Of a stretch of DNA of 32,000 bases, positions 3 through 14,025 are shown one piece after another. The stretch is taken from contig NJBF01000011.1 in the NCBI GenBank assembly GCA_003144275.1, forward strand, positions 60,001 to 92,000, given 5' to 3'. The position numbers were made by a program, and so were the translations under genes. Positions within the stretch are counted from its first letter, which is position 1. The number at the start of each line of letters is the position of its first letter. Source of the DNA: Candidatus Heimdallarchaeota archaeon B3_Heim. GTDB taxonomy: Archaea > Asgardarchaeota > Heimdallarchaeia > Hodarchaeales > Hodarchaeaceae. The notes beneath the pieces are model-generated. The model worked only from the letters and a program-made list of their open reading frames with translations. It was not told the DNA's origin and ran no database searches.

Positions 3-872
3 AAAAAATTAGACAAGAATGGATTCTTCAAGCTTTACATAAATCAACTAAATCAATTTATTTCAGACACTAAGGGAAAACCTACGAAGGGAAGTACACG
101 GCAATTCGACCCCTTTTTCATACCCCGATCGGGGGATGGAAGGATAGTTCTATTTGGATTATCAAATGTTGGCAAGAGTACTTTAATGAACGCCATAACC
201 AACACGGATGTAAAAACAGGTAGCTATCTTCATACTACACGAGAAGCACTTGCAGGAACTTTGGAATTTCGAGGCGTCAAAATTCAAATAATTGACTTAC
301 CTGGGTTTTTAGACTTCAAAGAAGATTGGAATATCAGTAAACAGATAGTCAGAGTGGCAAGAACTAGTGATTCTATCATATTAGTCATTGATCTTTCAAT
401 GGATATCAAAAGACAGTATAAATTTTTGATGGACCAATTGATCAACTCAAAATTACTAGAAACGGAAGAAGATTCGGAAATTTACAACCTTGGAATTATT
501 GCTACTAAAGGTGATTTACCAACTTCAAAACAGAATTATAGCATCCTAGAATCTCAGACAACAATACCCATACTACCAATCTCCAGCAATAATCCAGAGT
601 CATTAAATAATCTAAAAAGGTATATATATGATCTTCTAGACGTCATTCGAATTTATACGAAACCTCCCCGAAAAGAACCAGCAAAAATCCCATTTATAAT
701 CTCCAATGGATCAACAATTAACGAATTAGCCGAAAAAATTCATAATGATCTTGTAAGACATTTCCGTTACGCGAAAATCTGGGGATCTTCTGTTGAATTT
801 CCTGGTCAACGAGTAGGACCTGATCATCAATTGAATGATGAAGATATTGTAGAAATTACAACAGCTAGATAG
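3..872 (+). CDS. DRG/OBG-family GTPase with C-terminal TGS domain, 5'-truncated by window edge
   Basis: The frame is open from base 3 (KKLDKNGFF...), upstream of the ORF-track ATG at 186. Motifs: G1 GLSNVGKS, G2 region YLHTT, G3 DLPG, G4 TKGD, and TGS signature IYTKPP...KIH...FRYAKIWGSS...GQRVGPDHQLNDEDIVEI. Confidence 0.9.
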   Translation, partial: KKLDKNGFFKLYINQLNQFISDTKGKPTKGSTRQFDPFFIPRSGDGRIVLFGLSNVGKSTLMNAITNTDVKTGSYLHTTREALAGTLEFRGVKIQIIDLPGFLDFKEDWNISKQIVRVARTSDSIILVIDLSMDIKRQYKFLMDQLINSKLLETEEDSEIYNLGIIATKGDLPTSKQNYSILESQTTIPILPISSNNPESLNNLKRYIYDLLDVIRIYTKPPRKEPAKIPFIISNGSTINELAEKIHNDLVRHFRYAKIWGSSVEFPGQRVGPDHQLNDEDIVEITTAR

Positions 873-1012
873 ATACTTCTCGATGTCATCATCATTTATT
901 TCATTTAAAGTCATAAAAAAAAGGAGGTTTGATACACCATAATTCTTGGGGCATATCTTCAGAAATGTTATAACAATCAATTCACTTCACAAAATACCAG
1001 TGGGAAAAACGC

Positions 1013-1774
1013 ATGTGGGAAACGAAAATTACGAAAGTCTCTCCAAATGAACTCTTAATTAGAGGATATCCCCTCGATGAACTCATTGGTTCCATTTCTT
1101 ATGCAGCCGGAATTTATCTAGCATTAAAGGGAGATTTACCAACCAAACAAGAGGAAAGGGTTATTAATGCCATTCTAGTAGCAACAATGGATCATGGAGT
1201 GACTGCACCGTCGGCAGTGGCTGCTAGAACGGTAGCTTCCTGTGGAGTTCCAATTACCACCGCTATGGGTGCTGGAATACTTGCAGTTGGTGATCATCAT
1301 GGTGGGGCTGGTGAAAAATGTATCAAATTCTTAAAAAAGGCATTCGAATATCAGGAAAATGATCAATCTCTTTCAGAATTAGCTAAAAATGTTGTTACCC
1401 AAGCTAAAAAGAAAAAACAACGAATACCAGGTTTTGGACATCGTTTTCATACTGATGATCCCAGGACAAAGAAGCTCCTTCAAGTTGCATTAGATGAGGG
1501 AATTAGCGGAATGTTCGTGGAATTGGCTAAACTGATTGCATCGGAATTATCTACACAATCAAATCGACCGCTACCACTCAATGTTGATGGAGCAATCGGT
1601 GCATTACTCGCTGATATGGGATTCAAAGCTCAAATTGGTAAAGCGTTTTTTGCCATCGCACGTGTAACTGGGTTGACAGCTCATATCTTAGAGGAATATT
1701 CTCAGAGACCCGTTCGGACAATTATTCCTTCAGACGCGAAATATACTGGTGAGGAAAAAAGGCAGATACCTTGA
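1013..1774 (+). CDS. Citryl-CoA lyase / citrate synthase-fold protein
   Basis: N-terminus W-x-T-x-I...IRGY and motifs MDHG, GDHHGGA, IPGFGHRFH, DPR, NVDG. The 253-aa length fits the stand-alone citryl-CoA lyase subfamily. Confidence 0.85.
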   Translation: MWETKITKVSPNELLIRGYPLDELIGSISYAAGIYLALKGDLPTKQEERVINAILVATMDHGVTAPSAVAARTVASCGVPITTAMGAGILAVGDHHGGAGEKCIKFLKKAFEYQENDQSLSELAKNVVTQAKKKKQRIPGFGHRFHTDDPRTKKLLQVALDEGISGMFVELAKLIASELSTQSNRPLPLNVDGAIGALLADMGFKAQIGKAFFAIARVTGLTAHILEEYSQRPVRTIIPSDAKYTGEEKRQIP

Positions 1775-1779
1775 AAAGA

Positions 1780-2772
1780 TTACAAAATTTGTCTTTTGAC
1801 TTCATCTTGATCTTTCAAATGTTCTTGTTTCCAATATGGATCCCGAATAAACAGGTATGCCCCATGAGCAGCTAATGCTCCTTGTGCAGCAGCAACAGCT
1901 GCTAACTGGTAAGGGGTGACAATATCCCCAGCTGCAAAGATGCCCTCTACATTTGTGCGCATTAGGTCATCAACAATAATAAATTTACCAGAGAAATATA
2001 GTCCCAAATTCTCAAAAATTTCAGTATTAGGTTTTAATCCCACAGCAAGAATCACACAGTCTACTTCTAGGTCAAATTTCTCATTAGTATCAACATTTTC
2101 TAGAACTGCTCCTTCTACTCTTTGTTTTCCAGTAATTTCTAAAATATTGGTCTTGAACAGGATTTCTGCAAGCTTGTCGTTGGTAACTTTTGCTAAGTTC
2201 ATTTCAGATGCTCGGAAGGCATCCCGTCTGTGGGCAAGGTAAACCTTGTCAGCAACATTAGCTAAATCAATAACGGCATCAATAGCAGTATCTCCCCCAC
2301 CCACTACAAGAACGCGCTTATCATAGAAGGCTGCAGGCTCAGTGACATAGGGGTAAACACCACGGTTTTTCTTTGAGAATTTAGATTCACCAGGAATACC
2401 TAGCTCGTTAGGTTTCATTCCTGTGGCAATAATAATGGATTTTGCTTGAAATTTCGACCCTTCAGCAGATTCGAGTGTTAAATCTTTATAAATTTTAGTA
2501 ATACGATCCTTTACAAGATGTACACCATGATCAGCTGCTTGTCTTACCCATTCCGAGACTAAATGATCTGCCCGAATACTAGGAGTCCCTGGATAATTGT
2601 AAATCTTTTTATGAGGATAGATGGTAGATAAAAGACCACCCCAGGTACCACCTTCAAACACAGCCGCACGTAATCCTTTACCTGATGCGACTATTCCTGC
2701 CGATAACCCTGCAGGCCCTCCACCTACGATAATTAGATCAAAATTCATAACGCGTTCGTTTTGTTCTGACAT
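1780..2772 (-). CDS. Thioredoxin-reductase-like FAD/NAD(P)H oxidoreductase lacking CxxC (ferredoxin/flavodoxin-NADP+ reductase type)
   Basis: Has GGGPAG (FAD), GGGDTA plus HRR (NADPH) and GIFAAGD. The position of TrxR CATC reads GVYPYVTE. Confidence 0.8.
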   Translation of the reverse strand: MSEQNERVMNFDLIIVGGGPAGLSAGIVASGKGLRAAVFEGGTWGGLLSTIYPHKKIYNYPGTPSIRADHLVSEWVRQAADHGVHLVKDRITKIYKDLTLESAEGSKFQAKSIIIATGMKPNELGIPGESKFSKKNRGVYPYVTEPAAFYDKRVLVVGGGDTAIDAVIDLANVADKVYLAHRRDAFRASEMNLAKVTNDKLAEILFKTNILEITGKQRVEGAVLENVDTNEKFDLEVDCVILAVGLKPNTEIFENLGLYFSGKFIIVDDLMRTNVEGIFAAGDIVTPYQLAAVAAAQGALAAHGAYLFIRDPYWKQEHLKDQDEVKRQIL

Positions 2773-2927
2773 TCATAAAATCCCCTGAATTGGATTATTT
2801 GTCTCTTTTTTTTTCGATGTTATATTATATTACTGCTCTGTTTGTAGTAAAAAATCATTATAGTATCTAATGACAGAAATCTCAAGGAATTTTCCCTCTA
2901 ATTAGACTTTGGTAGGGATAAATGTGG

Positions 2928-2953
2928 AAAAAAATGAAGGAGTTGTTCTCCTT
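2928..2953 (-). terminator. Hairpin plus T-run terminator downstream of htpG
   Basis: Minus strand reads AAGGAG-AACAA-CTCCTT-CA-TTTTTTT, about 25 nt after the htpG stop. Confidence 0.55.
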
Positions 2954-2978
2954 AATATCAAATAATAAAACAAACACT

Positions 2979-4841
2979 TTATTTTTCTAGTATTTGCGTC
3001 ATAAAATCTGTGATACGCGCAATCATGGCAGCTGGATCTTTTAAATTACCTTCTGCTAATTCTTGACTTTCAAGTAACTGAAAACTACACTCTTTTAGTA
3101 ATGAAGATTCAGGTTCAGTTTCAAATAACTGTTTTAACGCGACGACTATTGGATGCGTTGTGTTTAATTCCATTATCTTCGCCTGAGGAACATAATCCTC
3201 GGTCATATACCGCAACATCCGTGTATAAGCAGCTGCCCCTTGCCCAAGTAACCGACAAGGACTATCAGTCAATGAATCCGTAAATCGAACATCAATCACC
3301 CGATCACCCAATATTTCTTTCATACCCACGAGGAAGGGGTCTTTTTCCTCCTCTTCCTTTTCCTTCTCGCCACCTTCTTCTTTCTCATCTGTTGAATCGG
3401 CAGGAAATTCGGGTTCAGCCTGATCAATTGCTTTAAATGCCTTTTCACTGAAAGTAGTCACATGCATCATTAAAAAAGTATCAATAGGTTCATCGAAGAG
3501 GATGATTTCTTGATCAAGTTGTTTAAAATGCTCTAGATGGGGACTTTGTTTGAGGGTTTGGAGATTTTCCCCTAAAAGGTATAAAATGTCCTCCTGTTCC
3601 TCTGGCATACTTTCAACGTATTTAGTAAGGGTAATAGGTTTCTCTTCAGATTTTGAGGTCTTAACTCGTATTAGTCCAAGCAATTTTTCCCTTCGTTTCT
3701 GATCATTAGCAATCCCTTCTTTGATGAAAACTGAAAATTGGTCATACCATGCCAGATATTTATCCTCATCTTCCTCTGCTATCTTTTCTAGCTCGCCAAT
3801 GATCTTTTTGGTTATTGCTTTCGAGATTCGACGGATGGTTCGATCAACCTGGATAACCTCACGACTGACATTTAATGGAAGATCTTCGGAATCAACAACA
3901 CCAAAAGCGAATCGGAGATATTCAGGAAGTAGATCTTTCGCTTTTTCTTGAATGAGGATTTTTTTACTATATAATTTCAAGCCGTAATCTTGGAATTGGA
4001 CAGAGGTCATTGAACGATCTCGTCTACTGGGGATAAAAAGTAAGGCGTTAAACTGGATCGGCGCATCAACGCTCATTCGTATCCTATGAAAAGGTTCTGT
4101 GAAATCCATACTTACTTGCCTGTAAAATTCATTATATTCCTCATCCTTAACCTCATCCTCTGACTGATGCCAAATTGGGGTTTGTCTATTGACGATCTCT
4201 TCTTCTTCTCCAATGCGAATAGGAAAACCAACAAAATCACTATATTTCTTAATGAGTGTTTCTAATTTGTATTTATTCAGAAATTCTTTTGCGTCTTCCT
4301 TCAATGTAAGAATAATCTCAGTTCCACGAGAGGGTTTATCAAAGTACGCAACAGAAAATTTACCAGTGCCTTCAGATCGCCATTCTATCCCTTTCGAATC
4401 GGTCACAAATGATCGTGATCGTACAGTTACGTCAGTCGCCACAATAAAGCTCGAATAAAAACCCACACCAAACTGTCCAATTAAATTAGCTACATCTGAA
4501 GAATCATCGAGTTCTTTGAGAAACTCAAGGGTTCCACTTTGAGCAATAGTCCCAAGGTTCTGAACTGATTCATCATAAGTCATACCAACACCAGAATCAG
4601 TAATTGTGATTGTATTCTCCTCTTCATCAAAGGATACATTGATGGCTAATTCTGCATCGGGATCTAGAATACCTTCTTTTTGTTCAAGCTGCACAATGCG
4701 AAAACGATGCAATGCATCAACAGCATTCGAAATTAATTCACGTAAAAAGATCTCCCGGTTCTTGTAAAGACGATTGATCAAAATATCAAGAACTTTTTGA
4801 ATTTCTGCTTGAAAATCGTATGTTTTGCTCTCTTCACTCAT
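2979..4841 (-). CDS. htpG: Hsp90-family chaperone HtpG
   Basis: FQAE, FLRELISNA, DSGVGM, IGQFGVGFYS, GVVDSEDLPLNVSRE, DSPC and ELNxxHP motifs; 620 aa. Confidence 0.97.
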   Translation of the reverse strand: MSEESKTYDFQAEIQKVLDILINRLYKNREIFLRELISNAVDALHRFRIVQLEQKEGILDPDAELAINVSFDEEENTITITDSGVGMTYDESVQNLGTIAQSGTLEFLKELDDSSDVANLIGQFGVGFYSSFIVATDVTVRSRSFVTDSKGIEWRSEGTGKFSVAYFDKPSRGTEIILTLKEDAKEFLNKYKLETLIKKYSDFVGFPIRIGEEEEIVNRQTPIWHQSEDEVKDEEYNEFYRQVSMDFTEPFHRIRMSVDAPIQFNALLFIPSRRDRSMTSVQFQDYGLKLYSKKILIQEKAKDLLPEYLRFAFGVVDSEDLPLNVSREVIQVDRTIRRISKAITKKIIGELEKIAEEDEDKYLAWYDQFSVFIKEGIANDQKRREKLLGLIRVKTSKSEEKPITLTKYVESMPEEQEDILYLLGENLQTLKQSPHLEHFKQLDQEIILFDEPIDTFLMMHVTTFSEKAFKAIDQAEPEFPADSTDEKEEGGEKEKEEEEKDPFLVGMKEILGDRVIDVRFTDSLTDSPCRLLGQGAAAYTRMLRYMTEDYVPQAKIMELNTTHPIVVALKQLFETEPESSLLKECSFQLLESQELAEGNLKDPAAMIARITDFMTQILEK

Positions 4842-6528: not shown

Positions 6529-7506
6529 GTGAAATATCGTCAAATGGGTCGCACTGGGTTAAAAATAAGTGAAATTAGTCTAGGTGCCTGGCTAACCTAC
6601 GGAGGAACCGTAGAAGAACTGGGTACCCAAGCATGTATTACTAAAGCTGTTGAGCTCGGCATAAACTTCATAGATATCGCTGATGTTTATGCTCGTGGGA
6701 AAGCGGAAGAAGTTGTGGGAAAAGTCATTACCAAGGAGAATTATGATCGGAAAAATCTGGTTGTAAGTAGTAAAGTGTTCTGGCCAATGTCAGATGGGAT
6801 TAATGACCGGGGACTCTCGCGAAAGCATATTATGGAAAGTATAGATCGCTCACTAGATCGAATAGGGACAGATTATCTTGATATCTATTTTGCACATCGG
6901 TTTGATTATCACACTAAGCTCGAAGAGACACTGCGTGCCATGTCTGATCTGATAGATCAAGGCCTAGTCCATTATTGGGGTACATCTGTCTGGCCAGCAG
7001 TCCAACTAGAACGTGCAGTTTGGATGGCTAAAGATCTCGGACTACATCCTCCCGTTGTTGAACAACCGCGTTACAACATGTTAGACCGATTTATTGAACG
7101 AGATGTCATGGACACCTGTGATCGGAATGGGATTGGGATAGTATGCTGGTCACCTTTAGCCCAAGGGGTGTTAACTGGAAAATATAATGATGGAGTGCCT
7201 GAAAATAGTCGAGCTACAACTAGTAACTTCATTCAGCGTGATTTAACGGAAGAAAATTTATCCAAAGTCCGTCAATTGAAAGATATAGCCACAAGTAAGG
7301 AAATAACTGTCGGTCAGCTTGCCCTTGCGTGGATTCTTCGTAGAAGTGAAATATCATGTGCTATCACTGGAGCCACTTCTGAAGCCCATGTTCTTTCTAA
7401 TGTTACGGCTTCTGATATAACCTTAGATAACCAAACTCTTGAAGAAATAGAAGGCATACTGAACAATAAACCAAAACAACATCCAGTCTATCTCCCACCA
7501 TGGTAA
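6529..7506 (+). CDS. Aldo-keto reductase (Kv-beta/YajO-like subfamily)
   Basis: GRTGLKISEISLG, DIADVY, SSK, YFAHRFD, EQPRYN, WSPLAQGVLTGKY and AITGA motifs; GTG start. Confidence 0.93.
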   Translation: MKYRQMGRTGLKISEISLGAWLTYGGTVEELGTQACITKAVELGINFIDIADVYARGKAEEVVGKVITKENYDRKNLVVSSKVFWPMSDGINDRGLSRKHIMESIDRSLDRIGTDYLDIYFAHRFDYHTKLEETLRAMSDLIDQGLVHYWGTSVWPAVQLERAVWMAKDLGLHPPVVEQPRYNMLDRFIERDVMDTCDRNGIGIVCWSPLAQGVLTGKYNDGVPENSRATTSNFIQRDLTEENLSKVRQLKDIATSKEITVGQLALAWILRRSEISCAITGATSEAHVLSNVTASDITLDNQTLEEIEGILNNKPKQHPVYLPPW

Positions 7507-7654: not shown

Positions 7655-7822
7655 TTAAGCGGCGGATCGATTAACTTTCTCTGTGGATTTGACTGTTGGT
7701 CTGAGATTCTGGGTATATAATACACCATTATAATTCAGGTATTCTAAGGTGAGTCGAAGGCGAGTCTCTTGATGGATTAAAGCTAGCCGCTCGTCGGAGT
7801 TCAGCTTTGTTGTTGGAGTCAT
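7655..7822 (-). CDS. Microprotein B (55 aa), paralog in the YLxYxG triplet
   Basis: MTPTTKLNSDERLALIHQETRLRLTLEYLNYNGVLYTQNLRPTVKSTEKVNRSAA*. SD-like GAGGAA upstream, TATA (TATAAAAA) at 7857-7864, and the core motif shared with two neighbouring ORFs. Confidence 0.8.
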   Translation of the reverse strand: MTPTTKLNSDERLALIHQETRLRLTLEYLNYNGVLYTQNLRPTVKSTEKVNRSAA

Positions 7823-7920
7823 TTAGTTCCTCGAGATATTACCATTCTCAAACTAATTTTTATATTCCCATAACATTTCCAGAATATAACTAGTTCTGGG
7901 ATCTCTCCTTCAAAGTCTCT

Positions 7921-7954
7921 ATTAAAAAAAGAGAAAAGGAGAAAAGGGAAAAAT
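7921..7954 (-). terminator. Pyrimidine/T-rich terminator after microprotein A
   Basis: Minus strand TTTTTCCCTTTTCTCCTTTTCTCTTTTTTT lies between ORF A and the ORF B promoter. Confidence 0.55.
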
Positions 7955-8043
7955 TGGCCGTCGCTAGTCTTCTTGACCCGACTCAAATTATCAAAAGGTG
8001 TTATTTCAGATTTGTGATGTTAATATGAAGACAAACTGCAATG

Positions 8044-8199
8044 TTAATATGCAGATGAACCAATAATCTTCAGTGAACCTTTCTGATCCTCCGTACTCGG
8101 TTCAGCACGAAGGTTCGTGAATACGGGTCCAGTGTAATTGAGATACTCGATAGTTGACTGTAGTCGTTCTTGTGAAGGTCGTAGTAAGGGACGTGCCAT
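8044..8199 (-). CDS. Microprotein A (51 aa), paralog in the YLxYxG triplet
   Basis: MARPLLRPSQERLQSTIEYLNYTGPVFTNLRAEPSTEDQKGSLKIIGSSAY*. TATA-like GTTAAATA ends 24 nt upstream of the ATG (leaderless geometry); shares the core motif. Confidence 0.8.
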   Translation of the reverse strand: MARPLLRPSQERLQSTIEYLNYTGPVFTNLRAEPSTEDQKGSLKIIGSSAY

Positions 8200-8200
8200 A

Positions 8201-8242
8201 CTAGAAATGTTGTTCTAGATACTATTTAACTGTTCTAGATAC
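8201..8242 (-). promoter_or_regulatory. Promoter of microprotein A: TATA box flanked by 12-bp direct repeats
   Basis: TGTTCTAGATAC at 8211-8222 and 8231-8242 exactly brackets tatttaac (8223-8230). An inverted repeat CTAGAA-N6-TTCTAG lies at 8201-8218. Confidence 0.6.
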
Positions 8243-8274
8243 CTAGGTAGTACGTGGGGAGGAAATTATTGGTG

Positions 8275-8433
8275 TTATACCAAAGGAAAGAGAGGAGAGG
8301 AGGATATTTCGGGAGAAATTGGTGGAATTTCTTCAATTCTTCGTAAATAAAGAGGTCCTTGGTATTTTAGATAGGCGAGTACTTCATTTAGATTACTTAG
8401 ATTTATTGATTCTGTATCAATCATTTTCATCAT
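8275..8433 (-). CDS. Microprotein C (52 aa; start could be M1, M2 or M4), paralog in the YLxYxG triplet
   Basis: MMKMIDTESINLSNLNEVLAYLKYQGPLYLRRIEEIPPISPEISSSPLFPLV*. TATA (TATATAAA) at 8452-8459; shares the core motif. Confidence 0.72.
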   Translation of the reverse strand: MMKMIDTESINLSNLNEVLAYLKYQGPLYLRRIEEIPPISPEISSSPLFPLV

Positions 8434-8611
8434 CCATGATCCTGTATTTGGTTTATATATTTAGAATCCCAAAAAAATACTTAGAGGGGTTTATCTATTT
8501 GAATAATGTGAAAGTTAGTATAAAAACTCGTAGAGGGAGGTTTTTCTATCCTAATTAGTGATTATTCATCCAATGAAGGACGATCTGTAGAAATCTCCAA
8601 GGATTATCTCG

Positions 8612-8636: not shown

Positions 8637-9884
8637 TTAGCTATTACTTAGGTATTCCCTGATTGCAATAGCTCCCGCAGCCCCTTCACCAGCTGCTGCC
8701 ACAGCTTGTTTCACTGATCCGAAGCGACAATCCCCCGCTGCAAAAATCCCTTGGACTGAGGATTGCTGTTGAGACGTGGTGATAAAACCTTGGGAATCAA
8801 GATCAACTCCCTTTAGGAACTTTGTATTGGGTGATAATCCTACGAAAACAAAAATTCCATCTGGATGATAATCTTTTACTTCTCCAGTTTCCGTATGCTT
8901 AACTCTAACAGCCTCAAGACTGTCCTCACCTAGTAGTTCAACAACTTCAGAATTTGCCCAGACTTCTATGCCTGATCGATCTCTTACTTTTTCCTGTAAA
9001 ACAGGAGAAGCACGGGGTTCATTCCCACGGACGAGAATTGTCACATGATCAGCAAATTTCTCTTTCAGAAAAAGAGATTCTTCAAAAGCACTATTACCAC
9101 CACCGATTACAAAAATCTTCTTATTTTTGTAGAAGAATCCGTCACAGGTGGCACAGTAATGTATACTTACTCCCAAAAGTGCGTCAGAACCCGGAACCAC
9201 AAGCTGACGATAATTAGAACCAGTAGCGACAAGAACAGCTGAGCATGTAAACTCCTGAGACTCAGTTTTTGCGACTTTATATTGACATTCATCAAAGGAA
9301 GCATTAGGATGACAGGTACCCACGTTCAAGACTTTTTGAGGGGAGAGAATCTCAACCCCAAACCGTTCGGCCTGTTTTTTAACATTCTCTGCAAATTCTG
9401 CGCCAGTAATTCCTTCTGGAAATCCTGGAAAATTATCCAATCGATTTGTTATGAAGGCCTGTCCTCCAACCGTTGATTGTTCTATTACTAGTACATCATA
9501 CCCATCTCGAGCAAGATAAATCGCTGCGGTAAGGCCAGCTGGTCCTGCTCCTATGATAACCGTATTATAGAATGATTTTTTTGCTCTTTGTGCTAACCCT
9601 AAGAAATCAGCTAGTTCAAAATTACTGGGTTCTACGAATAATTTTCGTTCTCCATCCTTTATTACTTCAACAGCGGGTATTTTTCGTTTTTTAGTCCCAA
9701 AAATTGTTTCATTCGTGTCATACACGAATTGTAAAGCTTTTTTCCCTTCAGCGTCTGGTTTTTCAATGTCAAACCAGCCATAGTGAATTCGCTGTTCACC
9801 TAAATATTTCTTTGTACGTCTACAATCACTACACCAGTTAGCTCCGTAAACATTAACTATTATTTGTTCTTCTGACATATTCAA
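8637..9884 (-). CDS. trxB: Glutaredoxin/NrdH-domain fused thioredoxin reductase
   Basis: N-terminal WCSDC plus IPAV (cis-Pro loop), then GAGPAG, HYCATCDG, GGGNSA and GIFAAGD. Start may be the second Met (9878). Confidence 0.92.
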   Translation of the reverse strand: MNMSEEQIIVNVYGANWCSDCRRTKKYLGEQRIHYGWFDIEKPDAEGKKALQFVYDTNETIFGTKKRKIPAVEVIKDGERKLFVEPSNFELADFLGLAQRAKKSFYNTVIIGAGPAGLTAAIYLARDGYDVLVIEQSTVGGQAFITNRLDNFPGFPEGITGAEFAENVKKQAERFGVEILSPQKVLNVGTCHPNASFDECQYKVAKTESQEFTCSAVLVATGSNYRQLVVPGSDALLGVSIHYCATCDGFFYKNKKIFVIGGGNSAFEESLFLKEKFADHVTILVRGNEPRASPVLQEKVRDRSGIEVWANSEVVELLGEDSLEAVRVKHTETGEVKDYHPDGIFVFVGLSPNTKFLKGVDLDSQGFITTSQQQSSVQGIFAAGDCRFGSVKQAVAAAGEGAAGAIAIREYLSNS

Positions 9885-11261: not shown

Positions 11262-13076
11262 CTATTGTTCACTCTCATCGTATTCTATGGGGTCTAGCTC
11301 ATGAGTCGTTGTAGATGATAATTGTTCTTTTCTCAATTGAAGCTTAAAGGGGAGAAGAGTAAAACAGAGAATGACAATTAAAAATACTACAAACATGAAC
11401 AAAGGAGCCATAAAATTCCAGTCAAACACAAAGAATACTGAACGGGCGAAATTAAGCTCTCCTCCAGTAGTAATATTGTAGCCCCGTGCTAATATTCCAA
11501 GGAACGACCCATATTCCATTAAGCCGACACTAACTAGAAAGCTTAACCCAAAAGATAGTCTGAATCTTCTTAGATAATTTTTTGATTTGTCCTGTCTATA
11601 TTCCAATCCTAGAAGCATACCAAGGGGAATATTAATGAAAACGAGTAGTAATAACATACTCAGAGGTAACCAAAGTGATTGGTCTTCAAATATTGTGGCT
11701 GTTAATAAAATTGCATTTCCTATGTATAGAAAAAACCCAGTAACTATCGAGATAGGGAGGAGATTAGAAAGGTGATTATGTCCTCTAGGAAGCATTTTTA
11801 TGACGACTACACCTAGTATCGCAGCTAATCCACTTATTCCACCAACTATACAGATCAAGCGGACAGACGCAAGTATCCGACTGAGAATATCCTGACCTGC
11901 CCAATTGGTTCCAAAGATATGAGCACCTCCTGGCTCTGCATATGCAGGAAAACCATTTGAAAAATCATCATTTATCGGATCAAAAGGAGTAAGAAATGAG
12001 ATTAGTATAATTACTCCAAGAAAACCCAAAAAACCAATGGTTAGAATTCTTTCACTTGGGTAACGTTTGAAATCTGTTCTAATTTGATTTGCAATCTCAT
12101 TAAGTGTATTAGGTGATGTTTCTACATTATTTCCTTTATTTAATGGAAGAGGAATGAGGCTGATAATGATAAATCCAACAAGAATCATAAAACCATAGTT
12201 ATATATGGAAGCGAATACAACGGGGATATTCATCAGCAATAAACTTGAGTAGAAGTACCGTCCTAGGCCTGGCCAACTGTAAATCGTTTCAAAAATAAAA
12301 TCTCCGAGGAAAATTGATAGATAAGTCGCTTTTAGGGTGGTTCGAATACTCAACTTGGAAGCAATGGTTATTAATCCGATAATGATTGAAAAAAAGCTCA
12401 TACTTAGTACAGGTAGAAAATTACGAGCAGCTGGTGAAGCTTCACTTCTCCATCCTGGAAGAATACGTACTCCTTCCCAGATTAATCCTGGATCAACTAC
12501 TGATAGTAAGACAAGAGGTATTGAAATAAGTAAAATAGGGCTCAGTAAACCAGCTATCCTTAGTATTCCATCTAACCTTCTGGATTTATAAATGTTTAAA
12601 TCTTCTAATACTCTGATTACAATAAATGGAGAAAGGATGATTATTGTAAGAGTTAAGGCTCCACTTAAAATTACTTCTGTGGCACCTGAGAGTGATGAAA
12701 GCTCTTCTGCAATGGCTCCGCTAGTCATCCAGTTCGTACCAAAATCTGCACTTAAATATTTGGTTAAGAGATAAGGAAATGAGAAGGGGAATCTTGGAAG
12801 ATTTAAACTTTCACGAAGGGTATTGTACTGATCTAATAGTGGAATCAACTCTACAGAAGATAACTTTGGTCTAATTGTTCGAGGATCAACTTCTCCACCA
12901 AATATTAGTACTAACAAGTCTCCAACCAAAAGGTTATAGATGAAAAAAAGTACTGTAAATGCAATTAGGAATCCAAGAATTGATGTTAATATAGAATAAC
13001 CAGCATTAATCGCATAAGGCTTTGAATAAATCCTAAATTTCTCATATAGCTCATTTTGTGTAGTTTTTTCTTCCAT
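11262..13076 (-). CDS. Fused DppB/DppC-like ABC transporter permease (divergent)
   Basis: First half has DFG and FETIYSWPGLGRYF (DppB-like). Second half has FLTPFDP...PGGAHIFGTNWAGQDILSRI (DppC-like). Confidence 0.7.
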   Translation of the reverse strand: MEEKTTQNELYEKFRIYSKPYAINAGYSILTSILGFLIAFTVLFFIYNLLVGDLLVLIFGGEVDPRTIRPKLSSVELIPLLDQYNTLRESLNLPRFPFSFPYLLTKYLSADFGTNWMTSGAIAEELSSLSGATEVILSGALTLTIIILSPFIVIRVLEDLNIYKSRRLDGILRIAGLLSPILLISIPLVLLSVVDPGLIWEGVRILPGWRSEASPAARNFLPVLSMSFFSIIIGLITIASKLSIRTTLKATYLSIFLGDFIFETIYSWPGLGRYFYSSLLLMNIPVVFASIYNYGFMILVGFIIISLIPLPLNKGNNVETSPNTLNEIANQIRTDFKRYPSERILTIGFLGFLGVIILISFLTPFDPINDDFSNGFPAYAEPGGAHIFGTNWAGQDILSRILASVRLICIVGGISGLAAILGVVVIKMLPRGHNHLSNLLPISIVTGFFLYIGNAILLTATIFEDQSLWLPLSMLLLLVFINIPLGMLLGLEYRQDKSKNYLRRFRLSFGLSFLVSVGLMEYGSFLGILARGYNITTGGELNFARSVFFVFDWNFMAPLFMFVVFLIVILCFTLLPFKLQLRKEQLSSTTTHELDPIEYDESEQ

Positions 13077-13383: not shown

Positions 13384-14025
13384 ATGAATTCTCTTTCACG
13401 TGGTATTCTAATCGCATTTGAAGGTATCGATGGCTCGGGAAAAACAACCCAAATACACAAAGTTGCGGAGTGTCTACGAGAACTTAATTATCCAGTAACC
13501 GTTACTCATGAACCTAATCCCAATAGTCCGTATTCACAGTTAATTCAGCAAAAGGTGAAGAAGCAACGAGACCAAGTCTCTCCTGAACAAGAGTTGGAAT
13601 GGTATACAGAAGACAGACGATGGGATTTAGAGAACAATATTCTTCCTGCGCTTGAGCGAAATGAACTGGTGTTAGTTGATCGGTATTATATGTCTAGTGC
13701 CGCATATCAAGGTGCTTTGAAAGTTTTTTCATTAGATTATGTTTTAGAGAAGAATTCCTTTGCAAAACGACCAGATCTATGGATTATCCTGGATGTATCT
13801 GTCAAACTTGGTCAATCTCGATTGGGAATGCGCGATAAACGAAACGATGATCAACTTGAAAAAACAGAGTATCAGAAATTGGTCTTAGTCAATTATCAAC
13901 GACTTTCTGAAATGGATCTCGGTGGCCAAGTCGTATGGATCGATGCCAGTATTGAGGAAGCTCAATTAACCCAAGTAATTGGACAGACAATCATTGATTT
14001 TCTGAAGGCATACGTTATCCACTAA
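13384..14025 (+). CDS. tmk: Thymidylate (dTMP) kinase
   Basis: FEGIDGSGKTT, HEP, VDRYYMSSAAYQG and PDL motifs. Confidence 0.93.
   Translation: MNSLSRGILIAFEGIDGSGKTTQIHKVAECLRELNYPVTVTHEPNPNSPYSQLIQQKVKKQRDQVSPEQELEWYTEDRRWDLENNILPALERNELVLVDRYYMSSAAYQGALKVFSLDYVLEKNSFAKRPDLWIILDVSVKLGQSRLGMRDKRNDDQLEKTEYQKLVLVNYQRLSEMDLGGQVVWIDASIEEAQLTQVIGQTIIDFLKAYVIH

Follow-up and report, generated by a model that had tools for sequence, protein, structure and literature searches.

A tandem trio of microprotein genes from an undescribed family, detected in a single Hodarchaeales genus

The 32,000-nucleotide (nt) stretch of Candidatus Heimdallarchaeota archaeon B3_Heim analyzed here (the window; contig NJBF01000011.1, positions 60,001 to 92,000, assembly GCA_003144275.1) has a 1.13-kb gap between genes for an aldo/keto reductase (AKR) and a thioredoxin reductase (TrxB). 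Three minus-strand open reading frames (ORFs) lie in this gap in the order C, A, B and encode paralogous proteins of ∼50 residues. We are almost certain that A, B, and C are real genes under selection and belong to a family not described before. Judged by sequence comparison, this family is new to databases and without detectable relatives outside one genus of Hodarchaeales, and its members look separately transcribed and tightly and privately regulated. A fuller explanation, in which separately transcribed genes of a new family make regulatory microproteins that dock to a partner, is tentative and falls a little short of an even call.

A reading of the DNA letters alone that preceded this work (the sequence-only reading) had proposed three paralogous ORFs with a common core; their coordinates, strand, and order, and the gapless alignment of their 15-residue cores, were all confirmed. 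The common core is L-x3-[IL]-x-[YF]-L-N-Y-x-G-[PV]-h-[FY]. The match that had been extended between A and B also stood (QERLQSTIEYLNYTGPVFT-NLR aligned with ETRLRLTLEYLNYNGVLYTQNLR; BLASTP E = 4e-7 over 23 residues), and A matched C with an E value of 8e-4. The three genes encode conserved residues with different synonymous codons (Tyr TAT/TAT/TAC, Leu CTA/CTC/CTG, Gly GGA/GGA/GGT), and no direct repeat at the DNA level joins them. The tails are Ser/Thr/Pro-rich, as had been stated, and end in paralog-specific tips (A, ...SSAY; B, ...SAA; C, ...PLV); none of the three proteins contains Cys. Gene C probably starts at its fourth codon, ATG 8424 (MIDT...), because this is the sole start common to all orthologs; the product would then have 49 residues. 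The description of the genes as unannotated holds only for the gene track then used, because some relatives are annotated as "hypothetical protein" in NCBI and JGI; one is a called 49-residue coding sequence in GCA_020348965.1.

Four sister species have one-to-one orthologs of C, A, and B, with the gene order unchanged. Pairwise comparison among sister species by the Nei-Gojobori method gave synonymous divergence (dS) of 0.5 to 1.6 for all three genes, with synonymous sites close to saturation, and ratios of nonsynonymous to synonymous divergence (dN/dS) of 0.05 to 0.24; C against its orthologs in the four species ranged from 0.06 to 0.21, with 0.01 in its core. By region, dN/dS was 0.01 to 0.06 in the 15-residue core, 0.11 to 0.20 in the N termini, and 0.14 to 0.26 in the tails. 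Because the ratio is low in every region, purifying selection acts on the entire ORFs and not on the motif alone. Selection at the protein level, which the sequence-only reading had deduced from codon usage, is thus borne out.

A profile built from A, B, and C alone found just these three copies in their own genome and recovered open frames of about 40 to 75 residues in 19 of 21 genomes of the same genus, so the similarity goes far beyond chance. That they would be no genes at all, only chance ORFs, a DNA repeat, a noncoding RNA, or a regulatory region, is hardly credible: short ORFs in AT-rich, intergenic-looking DNA, for which RNA or protein evidence of good quality is not available, might be read in this way, but all three frames are under purifying selection with synonymous sites near saturation, the frames stay open in 19 of the 21 genus genomes, the copies share no DNA repeat, and promoter and Shine-Dalgarno signals are conserved. 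An Rfam search of the region at E values up to 1 returned only a subthreshold ylbH match (18 bits against a cutoff of 50). For expression, four sequencing runs were compared with the window; two of them are labeled metatranscriptomic, are flagged as probably DNA, and yielded contigs only, and none of the runs on record as RNA contains this stretch. A 219-nt contig from a library labeled metatranscriptomic and flagged as probably DNA covers positions 7955 to 8173, that is, most of A and its 3' region, and stops at the edge of a T tract; the same library leaves the flanking AKR and TrxB genes uncovered, save for a 47-nt partial match. This contig is at most a weak hint of transcription, from which expression, strand, and level cannot be established.

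The family was defined by a length of 37 to 75 residues, the core motif, and occurrence in the genus, all of which A, B, and C show. With a 29-member profile, to which A, B, and C matched at 5.6e-18, 9.5e-14, and 4.4e-12, respectively, 19 of the 21 genus genomes had two to five matches each, and completeness is 71% and 80% for the two match-free genomes; no match came from 378 other Asgard genomes, among them those of two further genera of the same order. The same profile searched against all 1.84 billion cluster representatives gave 47 matches at E ≤ 1e-3, nearly all of 37 to 66 residues and none embedded in a larger domain. Two large matches (P0038 and P0046) are not relatives; they are translated tandem repeats. 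The public names of the close relatives ("Candidatus Hodarchaeales archaeon," "Candidatus Hodarchaeota archaeon YT1_021," and "Candidatus Heimdallarchaeota archaeon MAG_8") put the genus in Hodarchaeales/Heimdallarchaeia, and a scan of genome contigs with a single protein returned only close relatives again. In one genome (G013), the locus is split over two contigs (C141 and C45), with A and C copies that are 94 to 100% identical; these double copies probably reflect strain heterogeneity or a split or duplicated assembly, not a real duplication.

Fetched loci and the profile search together yielded 73 distinct small members, whose median length is 51 residues. Two Leu residues and the Gly of the core are kept in 72 to 73 of them, and the second Tyr in 68. 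The consensus begins with a short, polar N terminus (often MSQEP...), continues with E-x-L-x2-[TI]-[IL]-[ED]-[YF]-L-N-Y-x-G-[PV]-[LIV]-[FY]-x-R and a polar/acidic stretch (often PSDxExxD), and closes with a variable tail, for which SSAY, SSAF, and AAF are frequent endings. The A type, whose tails have these endings, is the most widespread in the genus, with the SSA[YF] tip recurring throughout; a B-like subfamily with an extended N terminus is also found in other species. Other species have, in addition, rare longer members, which carry either a zinc-ribbon-like tail or an N-terminal helical extension (Table 1). Both long forms stand in tandem in genome G017. An AlphaFold2 model of the 97-residue zinc-ribbon form (predicted local distance difference test [pLDDT], 45) was unusable.

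No described family accounts for these proteins, in line with the sequence-only reading, which had recognized none. A and C had no match in Pfam or NCBIfam at E values up to 10; the one match of B, to PTS_EIIB, is a chance agreement over 7 residues (13 bits against a cutoff of 27). PHROGs gave nothing below an E value of 0.24, the best E value in a profile search of the PDB was 0.83, and a feature search of the ESM Atlas gave no usable match. Neither IMG/VR, searched with patterns, nor phage records held a relative, and a viral or mobile origin of the family was rejected on this ground. In the literature library searched, no paper was found to connect small proteins of this kind with Hodarchaeales or Asgard archaea. 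Fast divergence from a known small-protein family or domain, with homology masked by the short length, is an improbable alternative. Mostly disordered proteins of 50 residues do quickly lose detectable similarity, and the longer forms (97 to 107 residues with CxxC...CxxC, and 120 to 126 residues with the N-terminal extension) hint at a modular past, but the 29-member profile reached nothing beyond the genus among the 1.84 billion representatives except the two tandem-repeat artifacts, and the domain, phage, and structure databases were equally silent. Moreover, the sister genera have AKR orthologs (64 to 65% identity) with no related small ORF beside them, suggesting that the family arose within the genus or has diverged past recognition.

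The promoter regions are conserved along with the genes. As the sequence-only reading had noted, a TATA box lies upstream of each ATG, and all three boxes are conserved in four sister species (Table 1). Their spacing would make the mRNA of A leaderless and that of C leaderless or very short leadered; upstream of B there is a Shine-Dalgarno-like sequence, and GTGAGGA precedes the ATG in many family genes of other species. In 10 species, whose intergenic DNA cannot otherwise be aligned, one family gene in each array has an operator-like element, GTAYTAC-N4-GTATCAC, directly 5' of its TATA box. When the whole 3.95-Mb genome was scanned with a position-weight matrix for this operator, one comparable other site was found, within a coding region, and no second promoter carried the element. 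In the window, copies of the 12-mer GTATCTAGAACA flank the TATA box of A (8211 to 8242, minus strand); the upstream copy is box 2 of the operator, and the downstream copy is a species-specific duplicate of that box that is not conserved in sister species.

Three other noncoding elements are conserved. The distal element CTCTACGAGTTTTTATAC is unique in the genome at up to two mismatches, bar one unrelated site, and no supported RNA structure was found for its block. The element AGTCGGGTCAAGAAGACT was rejected as a conserved RNA structure, since it forms only a 4-bp stem without covariation; the element ATATTCTGGAAATGTTA lies in front of B. Mismatch scans of the 3.95-Mb genome with these three elements revealed no second promoter. 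The T-rich tract that follows A is likely its archaeal oligo-T terminator, by its sequence. Because the operator and the other blocks are unique in the genome, the three genes look tightly and privately regulated, and the separate regulation that had been proposed agrees with a private conserved promoter for each gene.

TABLE 1 Coordinates of the microprotein genes, their flanking genes and noncoding elements in the window, and of long family members at loci of other species
Feature	Position	Strand	Remarks
AKR gene	6529–7506	+	Flank of the gap
Microprotein B	7655–7822	−	55 residues; N-terminal extension SDERLALIHQETRL; core LRLTLEYLNYNGVLY (Val for Pro); tail end RSAA
Shine-Dalgarno-like GAGGA	7828–7832	−	6 nt before ATG of B; TAGAGGAACTAAATG conserved in 4 species
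TATA-like box of B, AATATAAAAATT	7855–7866	−	Conserved in 4 species
Element ATATTCTGGAAATGTTA	7871–7887	−	Just 5' of TATA of B; invariant in 3 of 4 species, one change in the fourth; unique in genome
T-rich tract TTTTTCCCTTTTCTCCTTTTCTCTTTTTTT	7924–7953	−	After A; T/C-rich tract conserved in sister species
18-nt element AGTCGGGTCAAGAAGACT	7966–7983	−	3' region of A, upstream of B; nearly invariant in 4 species; unique in genome
Microprotein A	8044–8199	−	51 residues; core LQSTIEYLNYTGPVF; acidic linker; C-terminal KIIGSSAY
12-mer GTATCTAGAACA, downstream copy	8211–8222	−	Between TATA and ATG of A; exact direct repeat
TATA-like box of A, GTTAAATA	8223–8230	−	Centered ∼27 nt before ATG 8199; conserved in 4 species
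Operator-like direct 7-mer pair, GTACTAC-ctag-GTATCTA	8236–8253	−	Immediately 5' of TATA of A
Microprotein C	8275–8433	−	52 residues; core LNEVLAYLKYQGPLY; Pro/Ser-rich tail, end ...PLV
TATA-like box of C, AAATATATAAA	8452–8462	−	Centered ∼25 nt before first ATG; conserved in 4 species
Distal element CTCTACGAGTTTTTATAC	8518–8535	−	∼90 nt upstream of C; holds second TATA-like box; invariant block in 4-species alignment
TrxB gene, fused to Grx/Trx domain	8637–9884	−	Other flank of the gap
ORF of 604 residues, no Pfam family	11262–13076	−	Between acyl-CoA dehydrogenase and thymidylate kinase; part of the clade's inserted block
Long members, core plus C-terminal CxxC-x17-CxxC zinc-ribbon-like tail	L019:1285–1575, L015:1285–1605	−	97 to 107 residues; rare, other species
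Long member, ∼90-residue N-terminal helical extension before core	L019:1620–1997	−	120- to 126-residue type; rare, other species

Across the genus, the main locus consists of AKR, two or three microprotein genes, and thymidylate kinase (Tmk). Here and in the closest relatives, TrxB, an acyl-CoA dehydrogenase (ACAD), and a 604-residue protein stand between the array and Tmk (13384 to 14025), and TrxB adjoins the array only in the closest species. The sequence-only reading had placed the genes in a redox/heat-stress region; this setting turned out to be incidental and belongs to the gene order of this genome, not to the family, whose genus-wide flanks are AKR and thymidylate kinase rather than the redox cluster. 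Further family loci lie between genes for TruA/NOG1-like GTPase and an epimerase and near a metallo-β-lactamase gene, so that the neighbors at all locus types comprise AKR, Tmk, TrxB, ACAD, TruA, the GTPase, the epimerase, and the metallo-β-lactamase. AKR was rejected as the leading candidate for a functional partner. The microprotein genes are convergent with it and separately transcribed, and the AKR gene is degraded in two species next to intact microprotein genes: residues 162 to 263 are deleted in G011 (L012:757–1395), and only stubs of the first 28 and last 29 residues are left in G015 (L014:1169–1346). The persistence of the microproteins beside these remnants argues against dependence on AKR. 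Two other neighbors have features of their own. TrxB of the window carries an N-terminal glutaredoxin/thioredoxin-like domain of ∼100 residues with a CSDC motif (Pfam Glutaredoxin, E = 9e-5) and is a low-molecular-mass thioredoxin reductase fused to its likely redoxin partner. In one species (G004), a 443-residue protein with RRXRR and HNH domains, of a type linked to mobile elements, is encoded beside the array (L031:168–1496, plus strand).

The sequence-only reading had envisaged one helix, a YxG turn, and a divergent tail, and the predicted structure is consistent with this outline. In an AlphaFold2 model of A made with a 29-sequence alignment, a single helix spans residues 10 to 20 (pLDDT, 81 to 88) and ends at YLNY, with the rest at low confidence (overall pLDDT, 67); a YxG(P) turn and a disordered tail would follow. 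The amphipathic helix bears hydrophobic residues at i, i+4, and i+7 along with Tyr, Tyr, and Phe. Apart from the 15-residue amphipathic core, there is no hydrophobic stretch, and no transmembrane segment of 18 to 22 hydrophobic residues, as expected of a membrane microprotein or type I toxin, was found; A, B, and C also lack the two CxxC/CPxC pairs of archaeal zinc-finger small proteins. The median grand average of hydropathy (GRAVY) of −0.39 and the absence of Cys from A, B, and C mark them as cytosolic and as neither membrane nor zinc-finger proteins.

The same composition could serve self-sufficient small proteins that form homo- or hetero-oligomers through the helix and aromatic turn or act in bulk as disordered stress protectants. 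This is an unlikely alternative. The spacing of the hydrophobic and aromatic residues along the helix, the hydrophilic and disordered remainder, the several paralogs resident in each genome, and the stress genes nearby in this genome (HtpG, FprA-like, AKR, and TrxB) would all suit such proteins, but a near-invariant, position-specific motif (core dN/dS, 0.01 to 0.06) exceeds the needs of a bulk protectant, a helix of 11 residues is short for a stable coiled coil, and the genus as a whole does not keep the stress-gene context. A homodimer prediction for A, made with the 29-row alignment, scored 0.00 and counts neither for nor against.

The explanation that we prefer, with the reserve expressed above, is that A, B, and C are soluble, tightly regulated microproteins of ∼50 residues with regulatory or adaptor roles. 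Each would consist of four parts: a polar N terminus, an amphipathic helix that ends in the core motif, a polar/acidic disordered linker, and a short C-terminal tip. A near-invariant turn after an amphipathic helix, joined to a selected, disordered tail, is what would be expected of fold-on-binding docking, and the helix-turn-aromatic core may fold when it docks to a shared cellular partner. A second functional element, for instance a tethered ligand or stability signal, may be provided by the tail or tip, and through the tails, which are under selection yet divergent, the paralogs would differ from one another in output or in lifetime. The helix-plus-turn docking mechanism, taken by itself, is a possibility that we would not bet on, and we infer it rather than assert it because no partner was found.

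Several observations weigh against this explanation. No operon partner or recurrent, functionally linked neighbor occurs across the family loci, and a partner was not identified through neighbors, fused domains, or a shared operator. The Rosetta-stone route was rejected because tblastn found nothing in this genome homologous to the extra domains of the long forms (the N-terminal part of P0049 and the C-terminal part of P0052). A shared regulon was rejected as well, since the operator and the three other blocks front no other gene. The docking idea is drawn from the conservation pattern and predicted disorder only, and the same pattern would be expected if the proteins self-assembled, were precursor peptides, or had a nucleic acid or a small molecule as their ligand. 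In a more specific version, genus-specific and possibly de novo-born motif microproteins would dock through the core on a eukaryote-like machine of the trafficking, cytoskeletal, ubiquitin, or proteasome type, with the tips as tethered ligands or degrons. We consider this version very unlikely; if true, it would mean that eukaryote-style, motif-based regulation arose in the closest archaeal relatives of eukaryotes.

The sequence-only reading had also considered precursors of ribosomally synthesized and posttranslationally modified peptides (RiPPs), and this claim gained no support from genomic context. Families of RiPP precursors with conserved leaders and scattered multicopy genes include the Nif11/NHLP type, the prochlorosins, and MftA of mycofactocin. 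Under such an explanation, the helix and YLNYxGPhF would be the leader for a remote maturase, and the Ser/Thr-rich tail or the SSAY/SSAF tip would be the modified core, as in scattered prochlorosin-type precursors or in MftA with its C-terminal Val-Tyr. Like these precursors, the family combines a conserved N-terminal with a variable C-terminal segment, occurs as tandem paralogs, and has, in the A type, an aromatic end that recurs across the genus; the genome also encodes three PqqD/RRE-like (RiPP recognition element) domains, two of them stand-alone PqqD-like proteins (L035 1483–1824 and L037 1279–1743), and four SPASM radical S-adenosylmethionine (rSAM) enzymes. Unlike RiPP precursors, A, B, and C have no Cys and no double-Gly or other recognizable cleavage motif, and none of the three or more types of family locus has a maturase (rSAM/SPASM, YcaO, LanM/LanC type, or similar), RRE protein, protease, or exporter. 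YcaO is without a match in the genome, which is 94% complete, and the sole RRE-rSAM-SPASM fusion adjoins its own precursor-like ORF with Cys/Ala repeats on another contig (C54). The tails are moderately conserved across species, not hypervariable, and each gene has a private promoter. Unlike MftA, which ends in ...GVY and has mftB and mftC as neighbors, the tips are SSAY, SAA, and PLV, and no rSAM or RRE gene is adjacent. A RiPP role for the family is therefore rather improbable.

The contig with the fusion enzyme is of interest in its own right, as positions 47656 to 50832 of C54 (L041) are likely a RiPP locus. There, a 143-residue ORF ending in GGGGCACACAGCACACAGGGR (2739–3170, minus strand) is directly followed by a 459-residue enzyme with an N-terminal PqqD/RRE and a SPASM domain (1414–2793, minus strand) and then by a class I methyltransferase (653–1486, minus strand).

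No part of archaeal genomes is less charted than their small proteins, and Hodarchaeales have been proposed as the closest relatives of eukaryotes. Strong selection, restriction to one genus, a conserved aromatic motif, and private promoter elements make the family a tractable case for studying the origin and fixation of new genes in Asgard archaea and what motif-bearing microproteins regulate there. It is better founded than most finds of this sort, given its selection, its distribution, its conserved promoters, and the genus-wide operator; without a function, it is a well-documented orphan and not the discovery of a mechanism, and its significance would rise sharply if the core targets a eukaryote-like machine. 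Members of Hodarchaeales are now cultured, with transcriptome and proteome data (bioRxiv 10.1101/2025.02.26.640444).

A lineage-restricted microprotein family is a phenomenon known in kind; this particular family is undescribed. Regulatory microproteins of prokaryotes include nonmembrane small proteins of Haloferax and Methanosarcina, detected by ribosome profiling and peptidomics, and small protein regulators of bacteria. A, B, and C resemble them in their ∼50 residues, their own promoters, their leaderless or short-leader mRNAs, and their restriction to one lineage, and both groups, being too small for catalysis, are presumed to act by binding a larger protein. On the other hand, the family has no sequence relation to any described small-protein family, A, B, and C lack the Cys4 zinc finger of many archaeal small proteins, and the family lacks the transmembrane helix of most characterized bacterial ones; it also differs from known regulatory microproteins in its multicopy tandem arrays and near-invariant aromatic motif. 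In architecture, a possible analogy is offered by the ribosomal stalk protein P1/aP1 and the C-terminal tail of bacterial single-stranded-DNA-binding protein (SSB), which join a docking helix through a flexible acidic tether to a conserved tip at the C terminus. A, B, and C are much shorter than these proteins, share no sequence similarity with them, have tips that differ between paralogs, and come without evidence that the ribosome or DNA serves them as a platform. What they would have in common with P1/aP1 and the SSB tail is the layout: a foldable N-terminal anchor, a polar/acidic disordered linker, and a short hydrophobic or aromatic tip.

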